A DNA stretch of 32,000 nt from Crocosphaera subtropica ATCC 51142 (GTDB taxonomy: Bacteria; Cyanobacteriota; Cyanobacteriia; Cyanobacteriales; Microcystaceae): the NCBI RefSeq assembly GCF_000017845.1, contig NC_010546.1:1740001-1772000 (forward strand), given 5' to 3'. The position numbers were made by a program, and so were the translations under genes. Below are positions 1,425-29,936 of the stretch, one piece after another. Every line of letters starts with the position of its first letter. Position 1 is the stretch's first letter. Below the pieces are notes generated by a model, which made no database searches, was not told where the DNA came from, and saw nothing but the letters and a program-made list of their open reading frames with translations.

Positions 1425-4064
1425 TTACTTTAAGCTTTCTGTTAGCTGCTCTTTAGCAGTTAATAAGGCTTCAGATAGTTTACTGGGTTCTCGCCCTCCA
1501 GCTTGGGCTAAGTTAGGACGACCGCCACCGCCACCCCCGCATATTTTAGCAATTTGTCCGATGAATTTTCCAGCTTGAAGTTGCTTTTCTTGATTGACTT
1601 TTTTACTAAAAGCTGCTACTAAACTCACTTTTCCTTCTGAGGGAATTGACCCTAAAATAACCGCTCCTTCTCCTAGTTTTTGCTGTAATCTTTCCGCTGC
1701 GGTTTGCAAAGCTTTTGCGTCCATTTCTCCCATGTCTGAAACCAAAAGTTTAAACTCACCAATGGACTCAGCTTCGGTTAATAATTGGTCAGATTTGGCT
1801 ACAGCCAGGTCTTGTTTAACCGCTTCTAATTCCTTTTGAGTGGTTTTGAGTTCAGACTGTAAAGTAGTAATACGATCGCTAATTTCTTCGGGTTTAATTT
1901 TAAAGCGATCGCAGAGATCCTTAACCACCGTTTCCCGTACTTTTAAATACTCTAAAACCGCTGGTCCGGCCACCGCTTCAATACGTCTTACCCCTGAAGA
2001 AATACCGCTTTCTGACATAATTTTAAACAAGCCAATTTCTGCGGTATTTTTAACATGAGTTCCCCCACACAATTCCATAGAAACTCCAGGCACATCGATC
2101 ACTCGAACTTCTGATCCGTATTTTTCACCAAACATAGCGATCGCCCCTTTTTCTTTAGCAGTTTCAATGGGCATCACTGCGATTTCTGTCTCGTGTGCCT
2201 CAGCGATCCAAGTATTAATTAAATCCTCAATTTCTTGTAATTCTTCTGAGGTTACCGCACGGGGACAATTAAAGTCAAATCTCAATCGATCAAAAGCCAC
2301 TAAGGAACCCGCTTGAGAGATAGACTTATCGACAACTTTCTTCAAAGCTGCCTGTAATAAATGGGTTGCGGTATGATTCGCTTGTACCTGACGACGACAA
2401 GCCCGATCAATGGTAGCTGTGACCTGATCATTAACGGAAACACTGCCCCTTTCTACCCGACCAAAATGAACAAAAATACCTGATTCTTTTTGAACATCCT
2501 CGACACGAATCACTAAATTTTCTCCTGTCAGAAATCCCCGATCACCTATCTGTCCCCCTGATTCTCCGTAAAATGGAGTCTGATCTAATACGATTTGAAC
2601 CTCTGATCCGGCTTCGGCTGTGTCAACGGTTTTTCCTTGAATTAAAACCGCTTCAACTTTAGCAGTTAATTGTAAGTCAGTATAGCCTAAAAATGCCGTC
2701 GGATGGATATGTTCAGCTAATTTATCTAAGCTACCTTGTACCGTTAAATCAATGGTTTCATGGGCAGCTTTTGATCGTTCTTGTTGCTGCCTCATTTCTG
2801 CTTCAAATTCTTCTATATTCACGGTTAAATTGCTTTCTTCTGCAATTTCTTGGGTGAGTTCTAAAGGAAAGCCATAGGTATCATATAAGGTAAAGGCATC
2901 TACCCCTGAAATTTGCCCTTGTGTCTCGGTTTTTTCAATGATTTCAGCGAGTAATTTTTCTCCTCGTTCTAAGGTTTTTAAGAAAGCGGTTTCTTCCCGT
3001 TCTAATTCTCCTTTAATAAAGCTTTCCCTTTCCCTAACTTGGGGGTAAGCGTTTTCAGAAAGTTCGATAGCCGTTTCTGCCACTTGCTTGATAAATTGCC
3101 CTTCAATTCCAATTAAGCGGCCATGACGCACTACCCGTCGAATTAAACGACGTAAAACATAACCTCTATCAGTGTTCGATGCAGTAATTCCATCAGCAAT
3201 CATGTGAACCACTGACCGCACATGATCCCCAATTACTTTTAAAGAAACTTTTGTTTTTTCTGTCGCTTTTTGGTAGTCAATGTTAGCAATGTTAGCAGCC
3301 GTTTCAATAATGGGAAAAATGAGATCCGTCTCATAATTATTGGGAACTTTTTGTAAGATTTGGGCCATCCGTTCTAACCCCATTCCCGTATCAATATTTT
3401 TGTTTTGTAATGGGGCTAAATTTCCCTCAGCATCTCGGTTATATTCCATAAATACCAAGTTATAAAACTCGATAAACCGAGAATCATCTTCTAGATCAAT
3501 ATTATCCTCTCCTAATTCGGGATGAAAGTCATAATATAGTTCTGAACAAGGACCACAAGGACCAGTGGGGCCAGCTTTCCAAAAGTTATCTTTTTCTCCC
3601 ATGCGTTTAATGCGTTGGGGAGGAATACCGATCATTTCTTCCCACAATTTAAAGGCTTCATCGTCCTTTTCAAACACACTCACCACAATATTTTCTGGGG
3701 GTAACCGATACACTTTCGTAGACAGTTCCCAGGCCCATTTAATCGCTTGTTCTTTGAAATAGTCCCCAAAACTAAAATTACCCAACATTTCAAAGAAGGT
3801 ATGATGTCTAGCGGTGCGTCCCACATTTTCAATATCATTGGTTCTAATACACTTTTGAGACGTGGTAGCACGAGGAAAGTCTGGCTGTTTTTGGCCGAGA
3901 AAAATGGGTTTAAACGGAAGCATCCCGGCGATGGTGAGGAGGACAGTGGGATCTTCAGGAACTAGAGAAGCACTGGGCAAAATTTGGTGATTGTGTTGAG
4001 CGTAAAATTGTAAAAAGCGATCGCGTATTTGATTTCCAGTCAGAAAGGGTGCAGTTGTGGTCAT
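1425..4064 (-). CDS. alaS: Alanine--tRNA ligase
   Basis: 879 aa. Class II AlaRS motifs are present ([15 protein letters not shown], editing-domain HTATHLL and CGGTH, C-terminal [15 protein letters not shown]). Confidence 0.97.
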
Positions 4065-7380: not shown

Positions 7381-8094
7381 TTAACTTGACGTTTCATCTT
7401 CAAATTTATATCCCACTCCGACAACGGTTTTGATAAAAGTCGGGTTGGCGGTGTCAGGTTCAATTTTTTTGCGGAGTCTTCTGACATGAGTATCCACCAC
7501 TCTTTCATCCCCAAAAAAGTCATTTCCCCATAATTTGTCGATGAGTTGCGTTCGACTCCAGACTCTTCCTGGATAACTCATAAATGTGGATAATAAGTTA
7601 AATTCTAAGGTGGTTAATTCTAGTGTATCTTCGGTGTTATCCTCTAATTTTTTGACAGCTGAATGTTTGTCCAAATCAACCATAAAATGAGGAGTTTCAT
7701 AAACATTATTTTGGCTTCCACCGTGTCTTAAACTTCGTCTCAATAAGGCACGAACTCTAGCAACTAATTCAATGGGACTAAAGGGTTTCACTAAATAATC
7801 ATCGGCCCCGGTTGATAGGCCAATGACTCGGTCTATTTCTTCTCCTTTTGCGGTTAACATCAAAATATAAGGGTCTTTCGTGTTAACTTTTTGACGAATA
7901 CGGGTACAAACTTCTAACCCATCTAATTTAGGTAACATTAAATCTAAAATAATCAGATCCGGTGCTTGTTGTTGGAATAAATCTAAAGCCGTTAACCCGT
8001 CATAAGCAACCATACAATCAAAAGATTCTCTTTCTAATGTGGTTTGGATGATTTTAGCGATTTCCATTTCGTCTTCAACAATTAATATTTTCAT
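7381..8094 (-). CDS. OmpR-family two-component response regulator (receiver + winged-helix)
   Basis: MKILIVEDE...DLIILDLMLPKLDG...TAKG...ADDYLVKPF receiver motifs, and C-terminal LT..EF.LL....G.V.SR..L....WG trans_reg_C motifs. Confidence 0.93.
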   Translation of the reverse strand: MKILIVEDEMEIAKIIQTTLERESFDCMVAYDGLTALDLFQQQAPDLIILDLMLPKLDGLEVCTRIRQKVNTKDPYILMLTAKGEEIDRVIGLSTGADDYLVKPFSPIELVARVRALLRRSLRHGGSQNNVYETPHFMVDLDKHSAVKKLEDNTEDTLELTTLEFNLLSTFMSYPGRVWSRTQLIDKLWGNDFFGDERVVDTHVRRLRKKIEPDTANPTFIKTVVGVGYKFEDETSS

Positions 8095-8176: not shown

Positions 8177-8950
8177 ATGGAAACCCTTTCCCCCTATCTT
8201 AAGTTACCCAAAGATGAACTCATTTATGATGACGGAGAACCCTTGGAAACAAACCGCCACCGCATTGCGATGAATGTTTTAATTGACTCGGTTTATCAAG
8301 CATTATTGCCCCGTGAGGACTTTTTTGCTGGCGGTAATATGTTTGTTTATTATAGTGCTACCCAACGAATGAATCGAGATTTTCGAGGGCCTGATTTTTT
8401 TGTCACTTTGAATGTAGATGGGACTCTAGATCGCAAAGCTTGGATTGTTTGGCAAGAAAATGGGCGTTATCCTGATGTTATTGTGGAGTTAATGTCTGAT
8501 TCTACAGCGAATATTGATAAAACAGACAAAAAAAACCTTTATGAGCAAATTTTTAAAACAAGAGAATATTATATTTATGATCCTTATGATGCCAGTTCTT
8601 TGCAAGGATGGCGGTTAAATGGACAGCAAACCTATAGCGAGATTATAGTCGATCAACGAGGATGGTTATTTTGTGAGACGTTACAGTTATATTTAGGAAC
8701 TTGGGAAGGAAAGGTATTAAATGAGTCCGCTTTTTGGCTAAGATTTTACGATTTACAGGGAAATTTAGTCTTATTACCGAAGGAAGAAGCAGAAATTGAA
8801 CATCAACGGGCAGAAATGGAACGTCAACGGGCTGACTCTGAACGACAACAAGCAGAAACCGAACGGCAACGGGCAGAAACTGAAAGGCAACGGGCAGAAC
8901 GTTTAGCAGCAAGATTAAAAGAATTAGGGATTGATCCTAATGAAATTTAG
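8177..8950 (+). CDS. Uma2-family (DUF820) PD-(D/E)xK-like endonuclease with C-terminal ERQRAE repeat tail
   Basis: PDFFV ... PDVIVELMSDST ... KKNLYEQIFKTREYYIYDP is the typical Uma2 core. The tail is (E-R/H-Q-R/Q-A-E/D-x) x5. Confidence 0.85.
   Translation: METLSPYLKLPKDELIYDDGEPLETNRHRIAMNVLIDSVYQALLPREDFFAGGNMFVYYSATQRMNRDFRGPDFFVTLNVDGTLDRKAWIVWQENGRYPDVIVELMSDSTANIDKTDKKNLYEQIFKTREYYIYDPYDASSLQGWRLNGQQTYSEIIVDQRGWLFCETLQLYLGTWEGKVLNESAFWLRFYDLQGNLVLLPKEEAEIEHQRAEMERQRADSERQQAETERQRAETERQRAERLAARLKELGIDPNEI
8798..8902 (+). repeat. 5 x 21-bp in-frame tandem repeat (GAACGNCAACGGGCAGAAAC-type) inside the Uma2 gene
   Basis: Units are at 8798, 8819, 8840, 8861 and 8882. Each encodes a 7-aa ERQRAEx unit. 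Confidence 0.85.
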
Positions 8951-9289: not shown

Positions 9290-10666
9290 TTTTTTACCAG
9301 GGTAAGCTCATCTAAAATCCGCTTGACAGAAGGAATTGAGAACAGTCATCATATAGTTGTTGTTCATAGCAGCTTGCTTCATTTTCTGGCGAAGACTACG
9401 TTTAAATGTTTTTTCTTGATGGAGAACATTAAGAGCCAATCGTCTTAGAAGAGCAAAGTTCTGTGGACTATATTCTGACCGAATACGGCATTGATCTTCA
9501 GAAAAAGTGACATCGAGTGTCCAATGAAGGTTATTCTCAATGCTCCAATGGGTGCGGATCGCATGGCAAAGGAATTGGGCATTGGGAGGTAAAGAGGTCA
9601 GATAAAACTGAATATCGTGGGTAGTCTTGTTCCACAAGTGACGGATGCGTTCGACTACGACAATAGTTTGCAGTCCATGCCATTGTTGTTGCTGGTAAAG
9701 CTCTCCCATAGCTGCTACTGGTATAGCCCAAACGTATCGTTTCTCGGTGCGGTGGTGGCCCTTGGTTACACTTTTGTAGTAATCATGTTCAATGCCATCC
9801 CAGCCATTGTTTTGGGTATCAGTAAACCATTGCTTGACTTGAGAAAATAAAGTAGGATGGTTAGCTTTGAGAGTAACAATGTAGTCAGCTTTTTGCCGAC
9901 AAATTTGTTGGATAATGCTGGTTTGAGTTCCCATTGCATCAATGGTAATGATCGAGCCTGTAATGTCTAATAGTTCGAGTAAGGCAGGAATGGCCGTAAT
10001 TTCATTGGAGTAGTTTTCAACTTTGACTTGTCCTAACACCAGACTCTGCTGGGATGCCCACGCTGTGACCGTATGTAAAGCGCACTGTCCGGCGTTGCGA
10101 TCGTAAGAACCCCTTAATGTTTTGCCATCGATGGGGATAATTTCTCCTTGAATTGAATTCATTATAGATTGAACCCATTTTTGTAGGCATTTTTGCAGCG
10201 ATTCTGGATCAATTCTCTCAAAAACTCTTCTAAATGTGTCATCACTCGGGATTCCGTGAGGGAGTTCTAGAAACTCTGATAACCACTCCTGTTTTGCGAT
10301 ACCATAGTTCTCCATATCTTCCCAACCTTGGGACCCTGCAATGACTGCCAATATAGCGATCGCCAATACATCTTTAAGGAGGTGTTTTTTGCTTCTTTGT
10401 ACTCTAGGATCTTCTATTTCTTTGACATAGCCTAATAAATTGTTTTGGATTTCATCAATAGATGCTATATTTCCCTTTTCCTTTTTTTTCTTACTAGATT
10501 GTTTTTGGTCTGCAAACCCCTTGGCCATGTTCTGATTCCATAATTACGAAAGTCCTAATTGTACTTTGTTTTTTTATTTTAAGTCCCTTTTTGCCTCACC
10601 TAGACTTTACTTTCTTAGTCAAGTACATTTTATACCATTTTAGATGAGCTTACCCTGGTTAAAAAA
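9290..10666 (-). mobile_element. ISAs1-family insertion sequence (about 1.36-1.38 kb)
   Basis: Terminal inverted repeats are TTTTTTACCAGGGTAAGCTCATCTAAAAT (9290..9318) and ATTTTAGATGAGCTTACCCTGGTTAAAAAA (10637..10666), matching 29/30 with one indel. The minimal unambiguous IR is GGGTAAGCTCATCTAAAAT. It holds a single transposase ORF whose stop codon lies inside the IR. No direct target duplication is seen. Confidence 0.8.
9308..10528 (-). CDS. ISAs1-family (H-repeat-associated) DDE transposase
   Basis: 406 aa. Motifs PRVQRSKKHLLKDVLAIAILAVIAG, IPIDGKTLRGS and IITIDAMGTQ are typical of ISAs1 transposases. Confidence 0.9.
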   Translation of the reverse strand: MAKGFADQKQSSKKKKEKGNIASIDEIQNNLLGYVKEIEDPRVQRSKKHLLKDVLAIAILAVIAGSQGWEDMENYGIAKQEWLSEFLELPHGIPSDDTFRRVFERIDPESLQKCLQKWVQSIMNSIQGEIIPIDGKTLRGSYDRNAGQCALHTVTAWASQQSLVLGQVKVENYSNEITAIPALLELLDITGSIITIDAMGTQTSIIQQICRQKADYIVTLKANHPTLFSQVKQWFTDTQNNGWDGIEHDYYKSVTKGHHRTEKRYVWAIPVAAMGELYQQQQWHGLQTIVVVERIRHLWNKTTHDIQFYLTSLPPNAQFLCHAIRTHWSIENNLHWTLDVTFSEDQCRIRSEYSPQNFALLRRLALNVLHQEKTFKRSLRQKMKQAAMNNNYMMTVLNSFCQADFR

Positions 10667-12076: not shown

Positions 12077-13374
12077 ATGACCAAAATAGCTTATTTAGAC
12101 TGTGTGACAGGTATTGCAGGGGATATGTGCTTAGGGGCTTTAGTGGATAGCGGTGTTCCTTTAGAATACTTGATTGAGCAACTCCAAGGGTTAAAAATTG
12201 ACCACGAATATGAGTTAAGTCAAGAAAAAGTACAACGCAAAGGACAACAAGCCACTAAGGTTTATGTTAGCTTGGTAGAGCAAGATTCTCCTATAGATGA
12301 GCAGAGGAGCAGAGGGAGCAAAAATGATCATAGTGTTAAAACTTCTGCCCAAACTACCCCTAAAAGCCATCATCACCATCATACCTCTGCCCGTCATCTT
12401 CCTGAAATTGAAGCAATGATTAAAGCGGCCAACTTACCGCCACGGGTGACACAGTGGAGTCTAGATATATTCCGTCGTTTAGCCATCGCAGAAGGGGCTG
12501 TACACGGGATTTCACCGGAAAAGGTACATTTTCATGAAGTGGGGGCAACGGATGCCATCGTGGATATTGTCGGCAGTTGTCTGGGGTTAGATTATTTAGA
12601 GATAGATGAGTTATATTGTTCGGCGTTACCTACCGGTGGGGGGACGGTTTGGGCTGCCCATGGCCGTTTGCCGGTGCCGGTGCCTGCGGTATTGAAGTTA
12701 TGGGAGTCCCGACAAGTTCCTATTTATAGTAACAAGATTGAGAAAGAATTAGTCACGCCTACCGGGGCTGCGATCGCTGTTACCTTAGTTAAAAGTTTTG
12801 GTGAACCTCCCAATATGATACTAGAAAAAGTCGGGTTAGGTGCCGGTTCAAAAGACTTATCTTTGCCTAATATTTTGCGTCTGTGGATAGGGGAAAAAGT
12901 GACAGAAAAAAAAACAGTAATGTCGATGTAGTTGCGGTGTTAGAAACCCAAATAGACGATCTCAGTCCGCAGGTTTTTGGTTATTTATTTGAGGTTTTAT
13001 TGAATGTTGGTGCGTTAGATGTATTTACTCAGTCAGTGATGATGAAAAAATCACGGCCAGGTATATTATTAACGGTTATTTGTCCCATTGATAAAATAAA
13101 TGTTTGTGAAACTATTATTTTTAGAGAAACCACCACATTAGGTATTCGTCAAACGATTCAAAAACGTTCAATTTTAGACCGAGAAATCAAAACGGTTAAT
13201 ACACAATATGGAGAAGTTAGGGTTAAAATAGCTAGTCAAGGAACAGGAGAGAATACAAACCTTATTAATGTACAACCAGAATATGAAGATTGTGCGACTA
13301 TAGCGAGAAAGTTTAATGAACCTTTAACAACGATTCAAAAAATAGTTTTAGATGCTTTTTATTCTATAGATTGA
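12077..13374 (+). CDS. larC: LarC-family nickel-insertion protein (DUF111), split into two ORFs (12077..12931 and 12883..13374) that need a -1 frameshift
   Basis: The N-terminus [26 protein letters not shown], the His-rich stretch [12 protein letters not shown] and [16 protein letters not shown] lie in frame 2. The conserved continuation [15 protein letters not shown]... lies in frame 1. The frames meet at the A9 run. Confidence 0.8.
12906..12914 (+). other. A9 homopolymer slippery site at the larC frame junction
   Basis: GAA AAA AAA ACA in the zero frame and A AAA AAA AAC in the -1 frame. The zero-frame stop TAG is at 12929..12931. Confidence 0.7.
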
Positions 13375-14723: not shown

Positions 14724-15530
14724 TTATTCGTTGCTAATATAGCGAGCAACAAAGTCTTTGGCAGCTTTAGCAAAAGAACTTCTTGCTTCTGGTTCTTCAT
14801 CAGGAAGTCCATAAACCGAAGCACCCGGTTCTTTAGGTTTCTCAGTCACTTTAGGTTGAGCAGGGGTTTCTGTTGGCTTTTTAGCCTCGGTTTTAGTTTC
14901 CTTGGGGGTTGGTTCTTTAAGTTCAGAACTAGGAGGAGTTTCTATTGGCTTTTTAGCCTCGGTTTCAGTTTCCTTGGGGGTTGGTTCTTTAAGTTCGGAA
15001 CTAGGAGGAGTTTCTGTTGGCTTTTTGGCCTCGGTTTCAGTTTCTTTGGTAGGGGGTTCTTTCGCTTCAGAAGTAGCAGAGGTTTCTGTTGGCTTTTTAG
15101 CTTCAGGCGTTTCTAGATTATTTTCTTTTAATTGTGTCATAGGACTCGTTTCTTCTGATTCTGTTGTGTTATCGGTTGAATCTATATTGTCCACTTCTTC
15201 TGTAGAAGTGTCCTGATTTGATGGTGTTATTGTAGCAGGTGAATCGGAAATTGTCGTTTCAGAGGGAGAAGTTGGGGAAGTTTCTTGCGGTTCGGGGGGT
15301 TGTAAAACTTTGATAAACTGCTTTAATTGTTCTTCTTCTGTAACGGAGAGATGACGAACTTCTTCTACTTTTTTAGCGATTTCTGTCTCACCTAGATAGG
15401 CTAACCAGTTCTCAAAATCCCCACGTTTCAAATAATATATGACTTCTTGAGGAGACTGATGGCAGACTCCAATTAAATCTTGTACGCTATAAGCGAGGTG
15501 ACCACTGCTAAATCTAAAGGGTTCTGGCAT
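14724..15530 (-). CDS. Hypothetical protein with a conserved-looking N-terminal domain and an E/K/P/T-rich 24-aa tandem-repeat region
   Basis: The ATG at 15530 (MPEPFRFSSGHLAY...) is preferred over the TTG at 15554. The repeat unit is EAKKPTETPPSSELKEPTPKETET, about 3.4 copies. Confidence 0.65.
   Translation of the reverse strand: MPEPFRFSSGHLAYSVQDLIGVCHQSPQEVIYYLKRGDFENWLAYLGETEIAKKVEEVRHLSVTEEEQLKQFIKVLQPPEPQETSPTSPSETTISDSPATITPSNQDTSTEEVDNIDSTDNTTESEETSPMTQLKENNLETPEAKKPTETSATSEAKEPPTKETETEAKKPTETPPSSELKEPTPKETETEAKKPIETPPSSELKEPTPKETKTEAKKPTETPAQPKVTEKPKEPGASVYGLPDEEPEARSSFAKAAKDFVARYISNE
14866..15112 (-). repeat. 72-bp in-frame tandem repeat, about 3.4 copies
   Basis: Units start at 14866, 14938, 15010 and 15082 (GTTTCTGTTGGCTTTTTAGCCTCGG...). 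Copies 1 and 2 are nearly identical. Confidence 0.9.
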
Positions 15531-15741
15531 GGTTTCTTTTGTAATGTATAACAATAATTGAAGAGATTAAACTCTCTTTCTCAAGATACTATCAAATAGC
15601 CTCACCTCTACGCTATCATCCAATAGTTAGGGTAAAGATTATCATGATAAATCTTTCTTTCAGCTAAAACTCAGCTTTCTATCATTTAGAGTTTAGTGAA
15701 TTGTGAGAGTATGAGCATAGACTTATCTTACATTGTCAACA

Positions 15742-17163
15742 ATGTTCCTCATCAAATCGTTCCCTAATGTGAAACAACTTTCTCATCTGAGTTCTTTACG
15801 ACTTCGACTAACCGTAGGAATTGCTGCGATGTCGATTTTAGGATTAAGTGGCGTGGTACTTTGGATTAGTTGGCAAATGCAGAGTATCCTAGTTGTTACT
15901 CATAAAAATAATACACGCTACATTGTCGGTCGCTTTCCTGCTGATGTAGAAATCTATAGCGATATGGTTTCAGTAGAAGAGGGAACCCAAAAAGCCATTG
16001 ATAACCTGTCGAACCCTCAAACTTTATTATGGGTGAAAACCCCTCAAGGAAAAATTTTTGCTCAGTCTCAAGCTTTACAAATGGGGATGACAGGCAGTAA
16101 TTTAGTCTCGTTGACAAATATTCCCCCACAACCAGAATTACAAAAGGTTAATAACCGTTATTGGTTGTTATGTTCGACGCAATTAGTGGTAAAAGGGGTA
16201 ACCCTTGGAGATTTTTATATTGCTCAAGATATTACCAAAGATCAGATGATGTTTTGGCGTGTGATGCGTAGTCTGCTAATGATTAGTATCATTGCAACTA
16301 TCGTGATGACAATAGCCATTGCTTGGTACATCCAGACTTCTTTGACACCCCTAAAGCGCATGAGTCAGATGACAAAGGATATTTCCCCGGAAACCCTAGG
16401 AGAAGTTCAAATTCAATTAGAAAATGCTCCTAGTGAGGTCAAAGAATTAGCCGGAACCCTACAAACTACCCTAACTCGTCTTTCTCATGCTTGGGACAAT
16501 CAACGTCAGTTAGTCAGCAATGTTTCCCACGAGTTACGCACGCCGTTAACCGTAGTGTCTGGCTATTTACAAAGTACCTTACGACGGGGTAATAATTTGA
16601 CGGATATGCAACGAGAAGCCTTAGAAACCGCTTCATCGGAAGCTGATCGTACCGTTCAATTATTACAGGATTTGTTAGATTTAGCTAGGGCTGAACATGG
16701 AGGGATGTATTTTAACCTAGAAACCATTGTCCTTAATGAGTTATTAACGGAACTCGAGGGAATGGTGCATCAATATCCTATCCCTGTAAAGCTTTCTCTC
16801 CCTGATCAATTGATCAAGGTAAAAGGGGATAAAAATCGCCTCAAACAAGTATTTTTAAACTTAATTGACAACGCCGTTAAATATTCCCATTCCCCTGAAC
16901 CCATTACCCTTAAATTGAGTCACAATAAACAACAGGCAAAGATAGAAGTGTGCGATCGCGGTGTGGGTATTCCTTTAGCGGATCAAACTCGCATCTTTGA
17001 GCGATTTTATCGGGTAGATGAAGCCAGAAGTCGTAATGTTGGGGGAACCGGACTCGGTTTATCTATCGTCAAAACATTAGTAGAAGGGATGGGGGGAAGC
17101 ATTAACGTTATTTCTCAACTCAATCAAGGCACAACCTTTGTAATTCTGTTACCCTTGTCTTGA
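15742..17163 (+). CDS. Sensor histidine kinase (2 TM + HAMP-like + HisKA + HATPase_c)
   Basis: H-box VSNVSHELRTPLT. N box LIDNAVKYS. G boxes DRGVGIP and GGTGLGLSIV. The ATG at 15742 is preferred over the TTG at 15733. Confidence 0.9.
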   Translation: MFLIKSFPNVKQLSHLSSLRLRLTVGIAAMSILGLSGVVLWISWQMQSILVVTHKNNTRYIVGRFPADVEIYSDMVSVEEGTQKAIDNLSNPQTLLWVKTPQGKIFAQSQALQMGMTGSNLVSLTNIPPQPELQKVNNRYWLLCSTQLVVKGVTLGDFYIAQDITKDQMMFWRVMRSLLMISIIATIVMTIAIAWYIQTSLTPLKRMSQMTKDISPETLGEVQIQLENAPSEVKELAGTLQTTLTRLSHAWDNQRQLVSNVSHELRTPLTVVSGYLQSTLRRGNNLTDMQREALETASSEADRTVQLLQDLLDLARAEHGGMYFNLETIVLNELLTELEGMVHQYPIPVKLSLPDQLIKVKGDKNRLKQVFLNLIDNAVKYSHSPEPITLKLSHNKQQAKIEVCDRGVGIPLADQTRIFERFYRVDEARSRNVGGTGLGLSIVKTLVEGMGGSINVISQLNQGTTFVILLPLS

Positions 17164-17179
17164 GTTCGGAGTTCGGAGT
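17164..17179 (+). repeat. Heptamer tandem repeat (GTTCGGA) x2.3 immediately after the kinase stop codon
   Basis: TGA-GTTCGGAGTTCGGAGT. Confidence 0.7.
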
Positions 17180-17259
17180 AATTATTCTTTGAACTATGAT
17201 AACTTTAAATAATGCTTGACCATCTAATCTCTATTTCCTATTTTTATAATTAATTGAGG

Positions 17260-18438
17260 ATGAAAACAACAACCAAAGAAACCAACCAATATTTATTATT
17301 ATCGGGAGATGCTGAACGGAAGAAATTAGAAGTTAATTTCTGGTTAGTATCTGTGATAGCTTTATTGTTATTTATCGCTATTTATACCCTGACTTTGCTA
17401 TTCCTAAGACAGACATTTATTGGAGTCCTTTTATACGAAAGAGGGTTTACCCAGTTTTTGGTGATTTATTTAGCTTGTTTTGTGGTTTCTTTGACTACTC
17501 TGAAACTGATTAAATTACAACAAGAAGCCTTAGCTTTGCGTCGTTCCTGGGTTCCTCAAACGGTCACCTTTGATAATCCGCGATCGAGAGATTTACTAAC
17601 ATTACAAAACAATTTAACTAAACATAATCAACTTCTGCCGATTCGTTGTAGTCGCATTTTGGGAGCTTATATTCAGTCAGGAAGCCGTAAAATTGCTTCA
17701 GAATTAGCTCTAGATGATTCTACCTTTTATTTAAGTGCGTCCGAGTCTTCTTATAGTTTTCCCCGTGTTCTCGTTTGGGCAATTCCATTATTAGGATTTA
17801 TTGGTACCGTTATTGGTATTAGTCAAGCGGTAAATGGGTTTTCTAGTTTCCTAGAACAAGCAGGAGAAATAGAACAAATTAAAGAAGGAATAGGAACGGT
17901 AACCAGTGGTTTAGCAGTGGCATTTGATACTACTTTATTAGCTTTATTACTCAGTGTTTTGGTAATGATTCCTTTAGTTTTAGTGGAAAGAATGGAATCT
18001 CGTTTGCTGCTGAGAATCGATATCTATGTCAATGATTTAGTGTTACCTCGCCTCAAAGAGAGGAGTGAAAACTTAGATTATGATGGTATTAATCAATCCA
18101 TTCGTAAAGCATTTCAAGACTATTTACCTAACCCAGAAGCCTTAATTGAACCAGCACAGATTTATGCTAAACAAGCAGCCGAAACTTTTTCTCACAGCTT
18201 TATCTCAGAAATTGAAAAACTACAACAGTTAAGTGGTCATTTAATTGAACAAATAGAAAAAATCAATAATATGAGTATCGAAGAAAAAAGCAAATTTCTA
18301 GAAACCTTAGACCAACAATTAAATGTCAATCGGGAACTTTCCCAGTCTATGATCACAGAAATTAAACACATTCAACCCATTCTAGAAAAACTAAGTAAAC
18401 CCCGTTTAATAACCTTTACTGACTCAGAAGAACTTTAA
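17260..18438 (+). CDS. MotA/TolQ/ExbB-family proton-channel protein with a long C-terminal helical tail
   Basis: Four hydrophobic helices. Family-like motifs LLGFIGTVIGISQAVNGF and SGLAVAFDTTLLALLLSVLVMIPLVLVE. The ~140-aa tail (..EIEKLQQLSGHLIEQIEKINNMSIEEKSKFLETLDQQLNVNRELSQ..) looks coiled-coil. Confidence 0.8.
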   Translation: MKTTTKETNQYLLLSGDAERKKLEVNFWLVSVIALLLFIAIYTLTLLFLRQTFIGVLLYERGFTQFLVIYLACFVVSLTTLKLIKLQQEALALRRSWVPQTVTFDNPRSRDLLTLQNNLTKHNQLLPIRCSRILGAYIQSGSRKIASELALDDSTFYLSASESSYSFPRVLVWAIPLLGFIGTVIGISQAVNGFSSFLEQAGEIEQIKEGIGTVTSGLAVAFDTTLLALLLSVLVMIPLVLVERMESRLLLRIDIYVNDLVLPRLKERSENLDYDGINQSIRKAFQDYLPNPEALIEPAQIYAKQAAETFSHSFISEIEKLQQLSGHLIEQIEKINNMSIEEKSKFLETLDQQLNVNRELSQSMITEIKHIQPILEKLSKPRLITFTDSEEL

Positions 18439-18477
18439 TTTATAATGTTTCGCCGAAGGGGATATCTAAAATTTAAT

Positions 18478-18505
18478 TCCTGACTCCTGACTCCTGATTC
18501 CTAAA
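18478..18505 (+). repeat. Heptamer tandem repeat (TCCTGAC) x4, last units degenerate, in the intergenic gap
   Basis: TCCTGAC TCCTGAC TCCTGAT TCCTAAA. Confidence 0.75.
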
Positions 18506-18545
18506 ACTAAAAAACTTTGTACCTTATCAGTATGAGAACTACTAT

Positions 18546-19022
18546 ATGCGTCGTCGTTCTTTTTCTAAAAATTCCCTAGAAGTTGAATTATTCCCCTTTC
18601 TTTCTATTTTAGCCTGTACCATTGGCACTCTCATTTTATTGATCATTGTTTTAACCACCCAACTATTAAAAAATGAACGGGAAATTACCATTATTGCTAA
18701 ACAAGAAACCACAGGGGAAAATCAAGGTAAAATCCCGAAATACATAGAATGCAGAGAGGATGGTGTTTTATTACATCCGAGTCAAGTGTTTGTTCCCAAA
18801 TCTGAAATTGATAATCGGCGATCGCCCTTAAATCAATTAATTAGGGAGGTACAAAAAAACAAAGATAAACAATATTTAATTGTTGTCCTTCGTCCCCAAG
18901 GAATTGATGTCTTTCAACAAGTTAGAGACATGGTAGAAAAACGGGGGATCGATATTGGATACGAACCCATTGATCAAGATTGGAAATTAAAAATAGAAGA
19001 AGCAAACAACAATGAGAACTAG
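18546..19022 (+). CDS. ExbD/TolR-like single-pass membrane protein lacking the TM aspartate
   Basis: The N-terminal TM LFPFLSILACTIGTLILLIIVL has Ser where ExbD/TolR have Asp. The C-terminal module is YLIVVLRPQGIDVFQQVRDMVEKRGIDIGYEPI. Confidence 0.65.
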   Translation: MRRRSFSKNSLEVELFPFLSILACTIGTLILLIIVLTTQLLKNEREITIIAKQETTGENQGKIPKYIECREDGVLLHPSQVFVPKSEIDNRRSPLNQLIREVQKNKDKQYLIVVLRPQGIDVFQQVRDMVEKRGIDIGYEPIDQDWKLKIEEANNNEN

Positions 19023-19713
19023 AAGATATCGTAAGCTAAACTCACCCAGTCAAAACCTAGATTCTTTTTTAGATATTCTCACTAATACCGTGGGAGTATT
19101 AATGTTTATTAGTTTATTTATTACCGTTGTCGCAGTAGAATCAAGTACCATTGTTACAACTCCTTTGGTGTCAAATACTGAAAAGAAACCCCGCTTTTTT
19201 GAGGTTAGGAATAATAAAATAGCTTATATTAATGATGAAGAAGTTGATCGTCAGATTGCCCTTTTAATGAAGAATTTACCTGAATGTTCGGTTCCTGAAC
19301 TTCCCACAAATTTAGACACTTATACCTACCAATTTTATCTCAATCGTATTCAAGAATATGAAAATTGTCGAGCGCAAACGATTCAGAGTTTTCGACAATT
19401 CAAAGGAGAAACAGAACATTACAAAGTAACATTTTATGACCTTGATGCACTCATTTATGAACCTTTAACTCCCGAAACAGGAGAATCTTATAAAACCATT
19501 GCTCAAACCGATTCAAACTTTAATAAAACTTTAGAAAATTTCAATCCTAACACTGATTATTTAGCGTTTCTAGTACGTCCCGATAGTTTTTCTGCATTTA
19601 GAGCAGCGAGAAAACAAGCATGGAAAGCGGGCTATAATGTAGGTTGGGAACCTTTAAAAGAAGAAACTCCCATTGTTTTTGGCTCTAATGGAAGAAGTGT
19701 CGGAGTACAATAG
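19012..19713 (+). CDS. ExbD/TolR-like single-pass membrane protein retaining the TM aspartate, with an enlarged extracytoplasmic domain
   Basis: The start overlaps the upstream stop (ATGAGAACTAG). The TM LDSFLDILTNTVGVLMFISLFI contains the FLD motif. The C-terminal module YLAFLVRPDSFSAFRAARKQAWKAGYNVGWEPL is paralogous to the previous ORF. Confidence 0.65.
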   Translation: MRTRRYRKLNSPSQNLDSFLDILTNTVGVLMFISLFITVVAVESSTIVTTPLVSNTEKKPRFFEVRNNKIAYINDEEVDRQIALLMKNLPECSVPELPTNLDTYTYQFYLNRIQEYENCRAQTIQSFRQFKGETEHYKVTFYDLDALIYEPLTPETGESYKTIAQTDSNFNKTLENFNPNTDYLAFLVRPDSFSAFRAARKQAWKAGYNVGWEPLKEETPIVFGSNGRSVGVQ

Positions 19714-19835: not shown

Positions 19836-19925
19836 AAGTAAAAGAAAGATATAATATTTATGTTCAACGCGCAAGAATCATTTAAAAACCAATTAAAATT
19901 AATTAAAAAGTTATTATTAATAATT

Positions 19926-20495
19926 ATGATTCAAACATCAGAAAAAATATACAGCTTTCAAGATTATTGTCAATATAATGATGAATCAGACAATCGGTAT
20001 GAATTAGTTGATGGAAAGTTAGTATTGATGAATCCTCCTAGTTTTCAACATTTATTAATCGCCAAATTTTTAGAGTCATATTTTGATAATTTAATTAAAG
20101 AAAAATCCTTACCTTTACTATGCTTTAAAGAAGCAGGAGTAAGGACAGGATGGCGAAAATCTCGTATTAGTGATCTTTATATTATTGAAGCAAATACCAT
20201 TCAACAATTGTTAAATCAGTCAGCTATTGTAGACATCCCACCATTACTAATTGTTGAAATTGTCAGTCCCGAATCTGTTACTAGGGACTATCGTTATAAA
20301 CGTTCAGAATATGCAGCGTTAGGGGTTAATGAGTATTGGATTGTTGATCCAAAAAATGAGAAAATCACTATTCTTTTATTAGAGGAAGGTTTATACGAAG
20401 AAACGGTTTATCATTTATCAGATACCTTAGTATCTCGTTTATTTCCTGAGTTAAGTTTAACCGTTAATCAAGTTTTAGTTTCTGGGAATCGTTAG
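19926..20495 (+). CDS. Uma2-family (DUF820) endonuclease, second copy
   Basis: YELVDGKLVLMNPPS ... SDLYII ... PPLLIVEIVSPESVTRDYRYKRSEYAALGVNEYWIVDP. The ATG at 19926 is preferred over 19860. Confidence 0.85.
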   Translation: MIQTSEKIYSFQDYCQYNDESDNRYELVDGKLVLMNPPSFQHLLIAKFLESYFDNLIKEKSLPLLCFKEAGVRTGWRKSRISDLYIIEANTIQQLLNQSAIVDIPPLLIVEIVSPESVTRDYRYKRSEYAALGVNEYWIVDPKNEKITILLLEEGLYEETVYHLSDTLVSRLFPELSLTVNQVLVSGNR

Positions 20496-27006: not shown

Positions 27007-28101
27007 TTAACGATAAACGGGTAATGTAAAATGAAAACAACTACCTTGTCCGGGTACACTATCAACCCAAATTTGGCCATAGTGGACACGAATAATTTTA
27101 CGACATAAGGATAACCCTAATCCATAACCTTCTTTTCCTTGATCCCGTTGCAAACGGAAGTGGCCTTCAAAAATGCGTTCCTGTTTTTCTTCAGGAATTC
27201 CAGGCCCGGTATCACAGACACTCACTTGTACTTTTTGACTGGTCCGATGGAGAATTGATAGGGTAATTTCTCCTCCTTCTGATGTATATTTAATCGCATT
27301 ATCGATCAGGTTGACAATCACCTGACGGATTAATTCTTCATCGGCATAAACCCCAGGTACGTCTTGGGGAACATCTTGGATTAATTTTAAGGATTTTTCT
27401 GTTAACAAATCGTTATATTGTTCTACAATCTCTTTGGATAAGCGAGGTAAGAAAACTTCTGTCTGGTGAACTTGCAGTTGAGCATTCATGCTTTTGGATG
27501 CTTGTAAAATGTCTGTAATCAGACGATTCATCACCCGAAATTGGTTACGGGTTTGGTTGAATAGTTGTGCTGTTAATTTTTGTTGCTTCTCAGTTGGGTC
27601 TTGATTTTTGGCCAATTCTAGGGTTTCTACGGCAATGGAAGCAGCGGTTAGGGGACTGCGTAAATCATGGGCTAACATGGCTAACACTTGATCTTTGAAC
27701 TTCAGTTGTTCTTGTAAATTTTCTTTGTCTTTCTTCAGACGAAATATCTCATCGGAAAGACGCATTAGCTCCCCTGAATAACCAACATTGCTCGATTTTT
27801 CTAGTAATGAATCATGATGATTTTCTTCTAAAGATGATAGCCATTTGGGCCACCATTTTTTCAATTGATTGACAAGATTGCTTCCCGCTAGGGTTTGTCT
27901 GGGTTCTGGTACCACTTTAACCAATGCCGGGGTTGCGACTAACCGAAAATGCTCAACGAGGTGGGGCTGTTCGTGAATTTCAATAACTTCTAATTGGCAA
28001 GGACAATCTTGACTGACGGTTTTGATATAATCGCGGATCGGTTGAATATACTCATGGGAACTGGGACGCTCATCGACAAACAACAATAACTGAATCGACA
28101 T
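27007..28101 (-). CDS. sasA: Adaptive-response sensory kinase SasA (KaiB-like N-terminal domain + HisKA + HATPase_c)
   Basis: The N-terminus MSIQLLLFVDERPSS...QPHLVEHFRLVATPALVKVVPEPRQTLAGSNLVNQLKKWW is KaiB/thioredoxin-like. H-box LAMLAHDLRSPLT. N/G boxes LIDNAIKYT, DTGPGIP and GYGLGLSLC. An alternative GTG start is at 28155. Confidence 0.9.
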   Translation of the reverse strand: MSIQLLLFVDERPSSHEYIQPIRDYIKTVSQDCPCQLEVIEIHEQPHLVEHFRLVATPALVKVVPEPRQTLAGSNLVNQLKKWWPKWLSSLEENHHDSLLEKSSNVGYSGELMRLSDEIFRLKKDKENLQEQLKFKDQVLAMLAHDLRSPLTAASIAVETLELAKNQDPTEKQQKLTAQLFNQTRNQFRVMNRLITDILQASKSMNAQLQVHQTEVFLPRLSKEIVEQYNDLLTEKSLKLIQDVPQDVPGVYADEELIRQVIVNLIDNAIKYTSEGGEITLSILHRTSQKVQVSVCDTGPGIPEEKQERIFEGHFRLQRDQGKEGYGLGLSLCRKIIRVHYGQIWVDSVPGQGSCFHFTLPVYR

Positions 28102-28313
28102 AGATGCAGCCTGATCAGTTTTAGCGGTTGTTTGATGGTTGGGGGGTTCTAGCACTGCAACTCGATACTATATACTGACAAATAAGGAAGGTTCTTAGAT
28201 TAAGAGATTTTTCCTATCTATTCTATTCTAGATTCTTAAGATAGTCTAAAATCAACTACACTTAATCTTAAAGCTTAATGGCAAAAACTTCACTGTAGTG
28301 GTTGAAAACAATT

Positions 28314-29936
28314 ATGGCTCTTGGCTATGTTGCCCTCGTCCTTCACGCACACTTACCGTTTGTCCGACATCCTGAACGGGATTATGTCTTAGAGGAAGAG
28401 TGGCTTTATGAAGCTATTACAGAAACTTATATTCCTCTGCTTCGGGTTTTTGAGGGACTACAACGGGATGGCATCGATTTCAAAATAACGATGAGCTTAA
28501 CACCGCCTTTGGTGTCGATGTTGCGAGATCCTTTACTCCAAGAACGCTACCATGAGCATCTAGGTAAGTTAGAAGAACTGACGCTCAAAGAAATTGAGAA
28601 TAATCAACACAATGGCCATGTTCGCTATTTAGCTGAATTTTATTATCAAGAATTTACCCAAATTCGCCAAACTTGGGCAAAATATAACGGAGATTTAATT
28701 GTCGGGTTTCAACAGTTTCTAGAGAGTAATAATCTCGAAATCATGACTTCTGGGGCAACTCACGGTTATCTCCCTTTGATGAAAATGTACCCTCAAGCGG
28801 TGTGGTCCCAAATTAAAGTAGCCTGTGACCATTATAACGAAACCTTTGGTCGTCCCCCGAAAGGTATCTGGTTGCCTGAATGTGCCTATTATGAAGGGTT
28901 AGAAAAGATGCTGGCTAAGGCGGGTTTACGTTACTTTATTATTGATGGTCATGGTATTTTATACGCCCACCCTCGCCCCCGTTATGGCACCTATGCCCCT
29001 GTGTTTACAGAAACCGGGGTGGCAGCTTTTGGTCGAGATCATGAATCTTCTAGTCAGGTTTGGTCTTCTAAAATGGGCTATCCGGGTGATCCTGAATATC
29101 GAGAATTTTACAAGGATTTGGGTTGGGAAGCTGATTACGATTACATCAAACCCTACATTATGCCCAATGGTCAACGGAAGAACACGGGGATTAAGTACCA
29201 TAAAATTACCAATACTCAGGGCAATATGGGAAATAAGGAGTTTTATGATCCCTATTGGGCCAGAGAAAAGGCAGCCGAACACGCAGGGAATTTTATGTAC
29301 AATCGTGAGCAACAAATTTCCCATTTAGCTAATATGATGCAACGTCCCCCTGTGGTGGTGGCTCCCTATGATGCAGAGTTGTTCGGCCATTGGTGGTACG
29401 AAGGGCCTTGGTTTCTAGATTATTTATTCCGTAAGACGTGGTACGACCAAAGTACCTTTGATATGGTTCATTTAGCTGACTATCTACGTCATAACCCGAC
29501 TCAGCAATTGTGTCGTCTCTCTCAGTCGAGTTGGGGTTATAAGGGGTTTCATGAGTTTTGGCTCAATGACTCGAATACTTGGATTTATCCCCATCTCCAT
29601 GCAGCAACAGAACGGATGATAGATTTAAGTAATCTAGAACCGGCTGATGAATTAGAAGAAAGGGCTTTAAATCAAGCAGCACGGGAGTTATTATTGGCTC
29701 AATCTTCTGACTGGGCGTTTATTATGCGTACAGGAACAATGGTTCCTTATGCAGTGGAGCGCACGAAAACCCATCTTTTGCGATTTAATCAGATTTATGA
29801 TGATTTTCAACTAGGAACGATTAATGCTAATTTCTTAGATAGCATCGAGGCAATTGATAATATTTTTCCCAATATTGATTATCGGGTTTATCGTTTCTCA
29901 GGAAACAGGGAACAGGGAACAGGGAACAGAAAATAA
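28314..29936 (+). CDS. GH57-family 1,4-alpha-glucan branching enzyme-like protein
   Basis: GYVALVLHAHLPFVRHPE, WLPECAY and APYDAELFGHWWYEGP are GH57/DUF1957 signatures. The ATG at 28314 is preferred over the TTG at 28302. Confidence 0.88.
   Translation: MALGYVALVLHAHLPFVRHPERDYVLEEEWLYEAITETYIPLLRVFEGLQRDGIDFKITMSLTPPLVSMLRDPLLQERYHEHLGKLEELTLKEIENNQHNGHVRYLAEFYYQEFTQIRQTWAKYNGDLIVGFQQFLESNNLEIMTSGATHGYLPLMKMYPQAVWSQIKVACDHYNETFGRPPKGIWLPECAYYEGLEKMLAKAGLRYFIIDGHGILYAHPRPRYGTYAPVFTETGVAAFGRDHESSSQVWSSKMGYPGDPEYREFYKDLGWEADYDYIKPYIMPNGQRKNTGIKYHKITNTQGNMGNKEFYDPYWAREKAAEHAGNFMYNREQQISHLANMMQRPPVVVAPYDAELFGHWWYEGPWFLDYLFRKTWYDQSTFDMVHLADYLRHNPTQQLCRLSQSSWGYKGFHEFWLNDSNTWIYPHLHAATERMIDLSNLEPADELEERALNQAARELLLAQSSDWAFIMRTGTMVPYAVERTKTHLLRFNQIYDDFQLGTINANFLDSIEAIDNIFPNIDYRVYRFSGNREQGTGNRK
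29901..29935 (+). repeat. Heptamer tandem repeat (GGGAACA) x about 4.5 forming the last 11 codons and the stop of the GH57 gene
   Basis: GGAAACA GGGAACA GGGAACA GGGAACA GAAAATA, translated as GNREQGTGNRK-stop. Confidence 0.8.

Follow-up and report, generated by a model that had tools for sequence, protein, structure and literature searches.

Ion-driven membrane motors of the 5:2 class, such as MotAB, ExbBD, TolQR, GldLM and ZorAB, are currently explained by the alternation of two equivalent carboxylates on their B subunits. In GldLM it is the A subunit that carries the protonatable residue; operons of the ExbB-ExbD1-ExbD2 type are known from other bacteria, and AglR-AglQ-AglS combines one TolQ/ExbB-like A gene with two different TolR/ExbD-like B genes. 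The Myxococcus AglRQS has been described as a 5:2-like motor (PMC13104615). The window analysed here is a stretch of 32,000 nucleotides (nt) of the cyanobacterium Crocosphaera subtropica ATCC 51142 (contig NC_010546.1, positions 1,740,001 to 1,772,000 of the forward strand), in which three co-directional open reading frames (ORFs) over 17260-19713 encode an A subunit of the MotA/ExbB/TolQ family with a cytoplasmic helical tail (ORF1) and two paralogous single-pass ExbD-like subunits, B1 (ORF2) and B2 (ORF3), the latter alone with the transmembrane (TM) aspartate. Among the 5:2 motors the module represents a separate variant, widespread and virtually uncharacterised, with its asymmetric-Asp B pair conserved across distant lineages, and it is read here, with a probability of roughly 55%, as a motor driven by the proton motive force, whose axle is a B1:B2 heterodimer with a single protonatable Asp. 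Neither this clade nor a cyanobacterial tailed motor is described in the recent surveys of MotAB/ExbBD evolution and of the 5:2 motors, and the literature searched contained no specific mention of a named MotA/ExbB clade of cyanobacteria.

The ExbB-ExbD and TolQ-TolR systems resemble the trio in the A subunit, which falls in Pfam MotA_ExbB, has a small cytoplasmic domain and finds its best structural matches in TolQ and ExbB, as well as in the short, N-in, single-pass B subunits with the P-F-[IL]-D-[VI] TM motif, a small periplasmic domain with an apparently matching beta-beta-alpha-beta-alpha-beta order and no OmpA-like domain. However, the trio differs from them by two obligately paired and diverged B paralogues, one of which is without the Asp; by four TM helices of the A subunit instead of three, followed by a conserved tail of 150-440 amino acids (aa) with a terminal motif; by the neighbourhood lacking TonB, TolA, TonB-dependent receptor and Pal; and by B domains that in the window are too diverged for Pfam ExbD, with a Cys-containing subdomain inserted in B2. 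The likeness to AglR-AglQ-AglS is one of gene architecture, one A gene being followed by two distinct B genes; no Glt gliding genes are near the trio, and AglR is not known to have an A-subunit tail. MotAB and PomAB share with it the four-TM A subunit and a coupling site formed by a single Asp in the TM helix of B, but the trio has neither the OmpA-like peptidoglycan-binding domain nor the large FliG-binding cytoplasmic domain nor flagellar genes, and its A subunit is structurally nearer to TolQ and ExbB than to MotA. GldL-GldM is a 5:2 motor whose B subunit can bear a long periplasm-spanning extension, comparable to the long B1 forms described below; however, that subunit is not homologous to the B subunits of the trio, and GldLM is not known from cyanobacteria. 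The Zorya pair ZorA-ZorB also has a MotA/ExbB-family A subunit with a long cytoplasmic helical tail, variable in length among homologues, but the tail of the trio is much shorter, two ExbD-like B genes are present with no ZorB-type peptidoglycan-binding domain, effector genes are lacking, and the trio is conserved in the manner of the core genome rather than of a defence island.

The evidence for the asymmetric B pair comes from ORF2 (18546..19022, + strand, 158 aa) and ORF3 (19012..19713, +, 233 aa). Their paralogy, proposed in a preliminary description of the locus made from its sequence, was recovered both by BLASTP (with E-values of 7e-8 in the C-terminal module and 2e-4 N-terminally) and by the hhalign comparison of the two family profiles (probability 98.1%, E = 7.8e-14, 137 columns). 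Both families are highly conserved, with 547 cyanobacterial matches for ORF2 and 453 for ORF3. Ser20 of ORF2 (codon 18603..18605, +) and Asp21 of ORF3 (codon 19072..19074, +), the putative protonatable residue, share one hhalign column, and both align with Asp25 of E. coli ExbD. The claim of the same description that ORF3 only has kept the TM aspartate, with Ser in its place in ORF2, is upheld by the invariance of Ser20 in 62 cyanobacterial ORF2 homologues and of Asp21 in 61 ORF3 homologues. These residues are embedded in the invariant motif L15-F16-P17-F18-L19-S20 of ORF2 and among the invariant N15, L16, S18-F19-L20-D21, L23 and N25 of ORF3, Asn25 being also located in the TM helix. The B1 helix keeps the ExbD-like signature FPFLxxL...G, the Asp alone being exchanged for a small residue, which would suit a helix still packed inside the ring.

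The extra Cys-bearing extracytoplasmic stretch that had been noticed in ORF3 proved to be an insertion of about 80 aa (approximately residues 89-165; 19276..19506, +), which is a gap in the ORF2/ORF3 profile alignment and carries the invariant Cys92 and Cys119, between which a disulfide may form. The AlphaFold2 (AF2) model places in it the helix 103-128 and the strands 131-133, 137-142 and 146-151, and predicts the periplasmic part of ORF3 with a pLDDT (per-residue model confidence) of about 90 (means of 10-residue blocks 86-94 over residues 61-220). All of the 120 ORF3 homologues end in Gln, 110 of them in GVQ. The stop codon of ORF2 and the start codon of ORF3 overlap by 11 nt, ATGAGAACTAG, exactly as first reported (19012..19022, +), and by 4 nt in three other loci (L023, L024 and L030 in the numbering of the homologous loci used here), which suggests that the translation of the two B subunits is coupled and that they are made in roughly equal numbers.

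The main new result is that the family apparently reaches beyond cyanobacteria. The exhaustive search with the ORF2 family profile gave 2,974 representative proteins at E <= 1e-3, of which 1,223 remained at E <= 1e-10, including small forms of ExbD size, long forms of 450-970 aa and secreted stand-alone forms; none of ten sampled representatives had a significant Pfam match. The long forms share the TM motif, which is followed by a long helical stretch, the ExbD-like domain at approximately residues 190-300 and then several hundred further residues. When the 150 best ORF2-type representatives were aligned with hmmalign, 126 were alignable at the Ser20 column, with Ala in 48, Ser in 44, Asp in 23, Asn in 8, Gly in 2 and Thr in 1, and 24 had no alignable TM helix; a residue other than Asp (Ala, Ser, Asn, Gly or Thr) is therefore present at this position in about 82% of the alignable top representatives. 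The trio itself was found in six out-group loci, L026, L027/L028, L029, L030, L033 and L035, on contigs that are apparently non-cyanobacterial, being set apart by the content of guanine and cytosine only (mostly 52-67% against 37-48% in the cyanobacterial loci), with the exception of L033 (38%). L026 and L033 encode an A subunit of 448 aa, a B1 with Ala (FPFLAVLLC) and a B2 with Asp (DSFLDVVANVVG); L029 and L035 contain a fragment of the A tail, a B1 with Ser and a B2 with Asp; in L027/L028 and L030 the Asp is present in both B subunits. Thus, B2 has the Asp in six loci out of six, and B1 has Ala in two of them, Ser in two and Asp in two. The five full-length out-group B2 proteins all end in Gln as well, that of L035 being cut by the contig end. 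The ORF1 profile matched the A subunit of L027 over the full length, including the tail, with E = 6e-57, and those of L026 and L033 with about 1e-26 to 1e-28. In the B1 lineage, small residues have mostly replaced the carboxylate, and the B2 lineage has kept the Asp in every case examined; the recurrence of the B1-then-B2 pairing in the out-group strengthens the idea of a heteromeric B pair put forward in the preliminary description.

The relation of ORF2 and ORF3 to ExbD and TolR is a remote one. Pfam ExbD (PF02472), the sole recurrent family, matched 18 of the 62 ORF2 homologues weakly (best E = 1.4e-4) and none of the 61 ORF3 homologues. An alignment of ExbD/TolR references was composed of E. 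coli ExbD (checked against the PDB), Serratia ExbD and an unverified E. coli TolR sequence. In hhalign its match to the ORF2 family is collinear and runs through both the TM helix and the periplasmic domain (E = 2e-5 and a probability of 77% over 111 columns); for the ORF3 family, 73 columns were aligned with E = 2.7e-3 and with D21 opposite D25. The order of elements in the AF2 model of ORF3 is beta-beta-alpha, the insertion, and beta-alpha-beta-beta, which presumably corresponds to the ExbD/TolR topology. Accordingly, of the earlier assignment of both proteins to the relatives of ExbD, the kinship at the level of profile-profile comparison stands, so that they may be called ExbD-like by remote homology, while membership in PF02472 was not demonstrated, the proteins of the window having no match to this model.

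ORF1 (17260..18438, +, 392 aa) is supported as a tailed A subunit of the MotA/ExbB/TolQ class. Its frame opens at 17254/17260, and the ATG at 17260 is preceded by GAGG. Residues 161-242 match Pfam MotA_ExbB (PF01618) with 30.3 bits (E = 3.8e-7), above the gathering cut-off of 22.9, in agreement with the initial assignment, and the pair of helices by which the family was then recognised corresponds to TM3 (residues 170-191, with PLLGFIGTVxGI) and TM4 (217-242) of the channel core (17767..17985, +). The hydropathy and the AF2 model indicate four TM helices (27-49, 63-81, 170-191 and 217-242), the C-terminus being cytoplasmic by homology. The model, built with 54 homologues, is all-helical with a pLDDT of 77.8, and its top 50 Foldseek matches in the PDB are all chains of ExbB, TolQ, ZorA, MotA or PomA, with the target-normalised TM-score reaching at most 0.60 (TolQ), the probability mostly 0.9-1.0 and modest E-values of 0.014-0.27. 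ORF1 has 100% identity to the NCBI protein of C. subtropica, and there are more than 1,000 homologues of it in cyanobacteria. The 54-sequence alignment shows the invariant P176, G179, G182, T183, F222-D223-T224-T225 and P238, and the position of D223 stays acidic in the out-group A subunits (FDAT in L026, FETT in L028).

The tail (residues 244-392; 17989..18435, +) is modelled by AF2 as the helices 274-288, 292-336 and 340-378 with a pLDDT of about 55-80. It had been presented as heptad-like: the predicted helical character holds, with a length of about 150 aa, and the tail is conserved as a feature of the family, but the periodicity of a coiled coil is modest (z = 2.0, with the observed value reached by 16 of 500 shuffles). 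Members of the family are 389-682 aa long (median 465), the added length consisting of inserted helical repeats, and the Crocosphaera tail is the shortest. Near the C-terminus lies the motif IQPILEKLSKPRLITF (residues 371-386; 18370..18417, +), with the family form LKPxLEKLSKPRxITF; the pattern KPRx[IVL]x[FLYIM] occurs within the last 40 aa of 105 of the 116 ORF1 homologues, and the out-group A subunits contain LKKPRELRIV (L028) and LSRPRKVVF (L035) at the tip. Since the full-length ORF1 profile found among the PDB sequences generic coiled coils, such as designed bundles, the ZorA tail, syntaxin and apolipoproteins, and the length is variable with a conserved tip, the tail resembles a helical spacer that ends in a functional tip.

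In cyanobacteria the three genes form a module of their own, the neighbours of which vary. The order of A, B1 (about 153 aa) and B2 (about 233 aa) is kept in the Crocosphaera/Cyanothece relatives, Gloeothece PCC 7424, Lusitaniella, Cuspidothrix, Symploca and Caldora, and, among the cyanobacterial loci that are long enough, all but L011 and L012 contain the trio. It is syntenic across cyanobacteria, with flanking genes that differ between the loci. The scan of all window ORFs of at least 100 aa with Pfam, in which five ORFs matched nothing, detected no TonB, TonB-dependent receptor, Tol-Pal, flagellar or OmpA-like domain, in line with what had been stated beforehand; neither were TonB_C, Plug and TonB_dep_Rec found in the flanks of L016, L020, L023, L024, L025, L026, L027/L028 and L033, and Tol-Pal, flagellar and OmpA-like genes were likewise absent from the cyanobacterial flanks. 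Hence an adjoining tonB or TonB-dependent receptor gene, by which the operon would have been recognised as an ordinary ExbBD, was seen in none of six cyanobacterial and three out-group contexts. Scans for promoters and terminators gave signals no better than chance. The spacer between ORF1 and ORF2 is 107 nt here, about 120 nt in L004 and about 3 nt in most sister Crocosphaera/Cyanothece genomes, and heptanucleotide tandem repeats are present in both spacers flanking ORF1, at about 17163-17181 (GAGTTCG GAGTTCG GAGT) and about 18480-18503 (CCTGACT CCTGACT CCTGATT), so that a small repeat-bearing insertion appears to have lengthened the ORF1-ORF2 spacer in this strain. Directly upstream of ORF1 a membrane histidine kinase is encoded (15733-17163, +), which was considered as a partner and not counted in the module, because its synteny is confined to the Crocosphaera-Gloeothece group.

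In the proposed mechanism, ORF1, ORF2 and ORF3 would form one inner-membrane ion-driven motor of the MotAB/ExbBD/TolQR 5:2 class, with a ring of five A copies enclosing an axle of one B1 and one B2. B2 alone would provide the protonatable Asp (D21, at one helical turn from N25), and B1 would put the non-ionisable Ser20 at the same place, giving one proton-binding site per complex rather than two. The periplasmic domains of B1 and B2 may anchor the axle to a periplasmic partner or to the cell wall, to which side B2 would add its Cys-containing subdomain and the strictly conserved C-terminal Gln, while the five A tails may come together as a cytoplasmic helical bundle of variable length, whose KPRxITF tip could dock a cytoplasmic partner. 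That B1 is still in the pore is suggested by the ExbD-like signature of its TM helix, by the occurrence of small residues only in place of the Asp, by co-inheritance and by the frequent translational coupling. The 5:1:1 stoichiometry, the rotation and the direction of the output are those that we infer. The role is most likely a housekeeping one in the envelope or in uptake, possibly with a contribution to iron acquisition, such as is reported for the presumed Synechocystis counterpart. The sequence statements of the preliminary description all proved correct, and its structural reading is largely borne out; its interpretation, with a heteromeric, half-inactivated B pair and the tail as the output element, is partly supported. 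The extension to an unrecognised, phylum-spanning class of motors, with an obligate B1:B2 axle, one Asp and a pentameric tail that delivers an intracellular, TonB-independent output of mechanical or conformational kind, and which in cyanobacteria would be a broadly conserved housekeeping machine, is offered tentatively, being possible but on the doubtful side.

Several results weigh against the heterodimeric single-Asp motor. ORF2 and ORF3 of the window match no Pfam, NCBIfam or PADLOC model; in the comparison of the profiles with sequences, the real ExbD and TolR score just about 3 bits above 400 shuffles; the ORF2 and ORF3 family profiles reach neither ExbD nor TolR among the PDB sequences; and Foldseek with the ORF3 model had no match better than E = 0.1, ExbD and TolR being absent from its top 50. 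The heptad signal of the tail is weak, no conserved neighbour gene points to a cargo, and the single-Asp state is not universal, as L027 and L030 keep the Asp in both B subunits. In two loci from Crocosphaera metagenome-assembled genomes, L011 (from about 11186 onward) and L012 (from about 10882 onward), ORF1 is preceded by the kinase and followed by a gene of about 640 aa, maybe a sulfite reductase as judged from the N-terminus by eye, with neither B1 nor B2 in the approximately 9-10 kb downstream; homologues of ORF2 and ORF3 are absent from the whole locus of about 20 kb, the B genes being either moved elsewhere or lost.

The trio of ExbB-like type remembered from Synechocystis in the preliminary description does exist in the literature. 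The three exbB/exbD clusters examined by Jiang et al. are reportedly redundant, the triple mutant being lethal. The genes sll0477-0479 form a single transcription unit annotated as 'ExbB-like | HP | HP', which is induced 6.7-fold by iron stress (PMC4195498), and they are given as the exbB/exbD3/exbD4 set in PMC8634477; the ExbB-ExbD complexes are named essential for inorganic iron uptake in PMC7676907, which refers to Jiang et al. 2015. The annotation pattern of sll0477-0479 fits the trio, and they are its presumed counterpart. An insertion mutant in exbB2 (alr4587) of Anabaena does not grow without fixed nitrogen (PMC8262864). As a candidate orthologue of ORF1, alr4587 was set aside as unsupported after a weak test, in which the four gene-specific primers could not be mapped (with up to 5 mismatches and sensible geometry) on the ORF1 orthologues, including the nostocalean L025.

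The main functional rival of the heterodimeric motor is a divergent Ton energiser, in which ORF1 is an ExbB and ORF2 and ORF3 are two ExbD proteins that couple the proton motive force to a TonB encoded elsewhere, and thereby power uptake across the outer membrane, for instance of iron, the tail and the Ser being incidental features of the lineage. The nearest relatives by sequence and structure are indeed ExbB/TolQ and ExbD/TolR, the presumed Synechocystis counterpart is treated as ExbBD, and its induction by iron stress together with the reported need of ExbB-ExbD for the uptake of inorganic iron would suit such a function. However, this link depends on a presumed orthology, the trio is adjoined by tonB or receptor genes in none of the nine contexts mentioned, and basal cyanobacteria are reported to possess ExbB/D homologues, mostly without TonB. 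Canonical ExbB also lacks the conserved 150-440 aa tail with its terminal motif, and canonical ExbD keeps the Asp that about 82% of the B1-type proteins have lost, so that the Ton explanation is judged unlikely, if still to be reckoned with. Even less favoured is an anti-phage module of the Zorya type, in which the tailed MotA homologue senses an envelope perturbation and signals via the tail. It could draw on the weak NCBIfam and PADLOC matches to ZorA (E = 1.8e-5 to 1e-2), the ZorA structures among the Foldseek matches, the weak match of the tail profile to the ZorA tail and the one orthologue that adjoins a Cmr CRISPR locus. But the ZorA matches are limited to the shared TM core, with 24 bits in NCBIfam against the cut-off of 100 and a likewise weak score in PADLOC, and the tail match is a generic coiled-coil similarity shared with syntaxin, apolipoproteins and designed bundles. 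Furthermore, no ZorB-type peptidoglycan-binding domain and no effector resembling ZorC, ZorD or ZorE is present, PADLOC finding no ZorB, ZorC or ZorD; the neighbours are ordinary, variable housekeeping genes; and the trio is conserved on the chromosome across many cyanobacterial genera rather than being patchy like defence islands, all of which makes a role in defence highly improbable.

Structurally, the chief rival places B1 at the periphery of an A5:B2:B2 core. Five ORF1 copies would then surround an ORF3 homodimer with two Asp residues, and ORF2 would be a paralogue recruited as a force transducer like TonB or TolA, for which the Asp became dispensable outside the pore. In favour of it, B2 keeps the Asp in all the loci examined, and many out-group B1 proteins are 450-970 aa long, with periplasmic extensions that lend this rival plausibility, with an architecture reminiscent of TolA, TonB and GldM and with Ala at the Asp position in 45 of the 52 long forms whose TM helix could be aligned. 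SHLS is the TM motif of the TonB/TolA type; however, the TM helix of B1 has instead the ExbD-like pore signature FPFLxxLxCxxGxL, the cyanobacterial B1 is just about 150 aa with a short linker, and B1 of some loci retains the Asp. The peripheral transducer is therefore considered rather improbable, and the B1:B2 axle within the ring of A subunits is preferred.

Some further features of the loci deserve mention. In L027, and also in L028, the genes A, B1 and B2 are flanked by an HSP70/MreB-like ATPase and, on the other side, by a Ser/Thr kinase fused to an FGE-sulfatase domain, then by a giant WD40 protein (flanking genes at 1706-3370 and 8271-14535 of L027), which are possible partners in one lineage only. 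A secreted protein with two copies of the ORF2-type domain (279 aa, with a signal peptide) is encoded in L031 (6001-6840) and L032 (992-1831) near a porin and an extracytoplasmic function (ECF) sigma factor, away from any MotA/ExbB gene, so that the ORF2-type periplasmic domain is not confined to motors. Two Uma2-family (putative restriction endonuclease-like) genes are present in the window (8177-8950, +, and 19860-20495, +), one of them directly downstream of ORF3; Uma2 genes also accompany the trio in Gloeothece (L023) and Cuspidothrix (L025), which probably reflects the great abundance of this family in cyanobacteria. The distance between the trio and the gene of a GH57-type glucan branching enzyme is about 8.6 kb in the window (28302-29936, +) and about 400 bp in Lusitaniella (L024, 13132-14721, -), which may be remnant synteny or coincidence. 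The window also contains a SasA-type kinase with KaiB, HisKA and HATPase domains (27007-28155, -), an OmpR-type response regulator (7381-8094, -) and a DDE transposase of the insertion sequence type (9308-10528, -). The nickel-insertion protein LarC (Pfam Ni_insertion) is split into the ORFs 12077-12931 and 12883-13374 (+), covering the profile positions 1-245 and 237-374; the same split in L003 and L013 indicates that it is conserved and not a sequencing error, and it recalls the programmed frameshift reported for larC1/larC2 of Lactiplantibacillus. The protein of 276 aa encoded at 14724-15554 (-) has no Pfam match; tandem repeats with much Pro, Glu, Thr and Lys (TETEAKKPTETPPSSELKEPTPKE) make up its C-terminal half, and its identity to relatives drops quickly, reaching about 45-50% within Crocosphaera.

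Although 2,974 representatives are found by the profile, Pfam lacks a model for the B-subunit domain, and the definition of a new family is therefore warranted. If the single-Asp reading is true, the trio would be a natural, built-in test of the two-site mechanism assumed for the 5:2 motors, namely whether one site can drive rotation and with what step size, and a conserved membrane machine would be added to the cell biology of cyanobacteria. It would also warn against lumping the operons of the sll0477-0479 type with canonical ExbBD in the genetics of iron uptake. The module could be the TonB-independent 'ExbBD' of basal cyanobacteria and, thus, could clarify why cyanobacteria have retained 'ExbB/D' without TonB.

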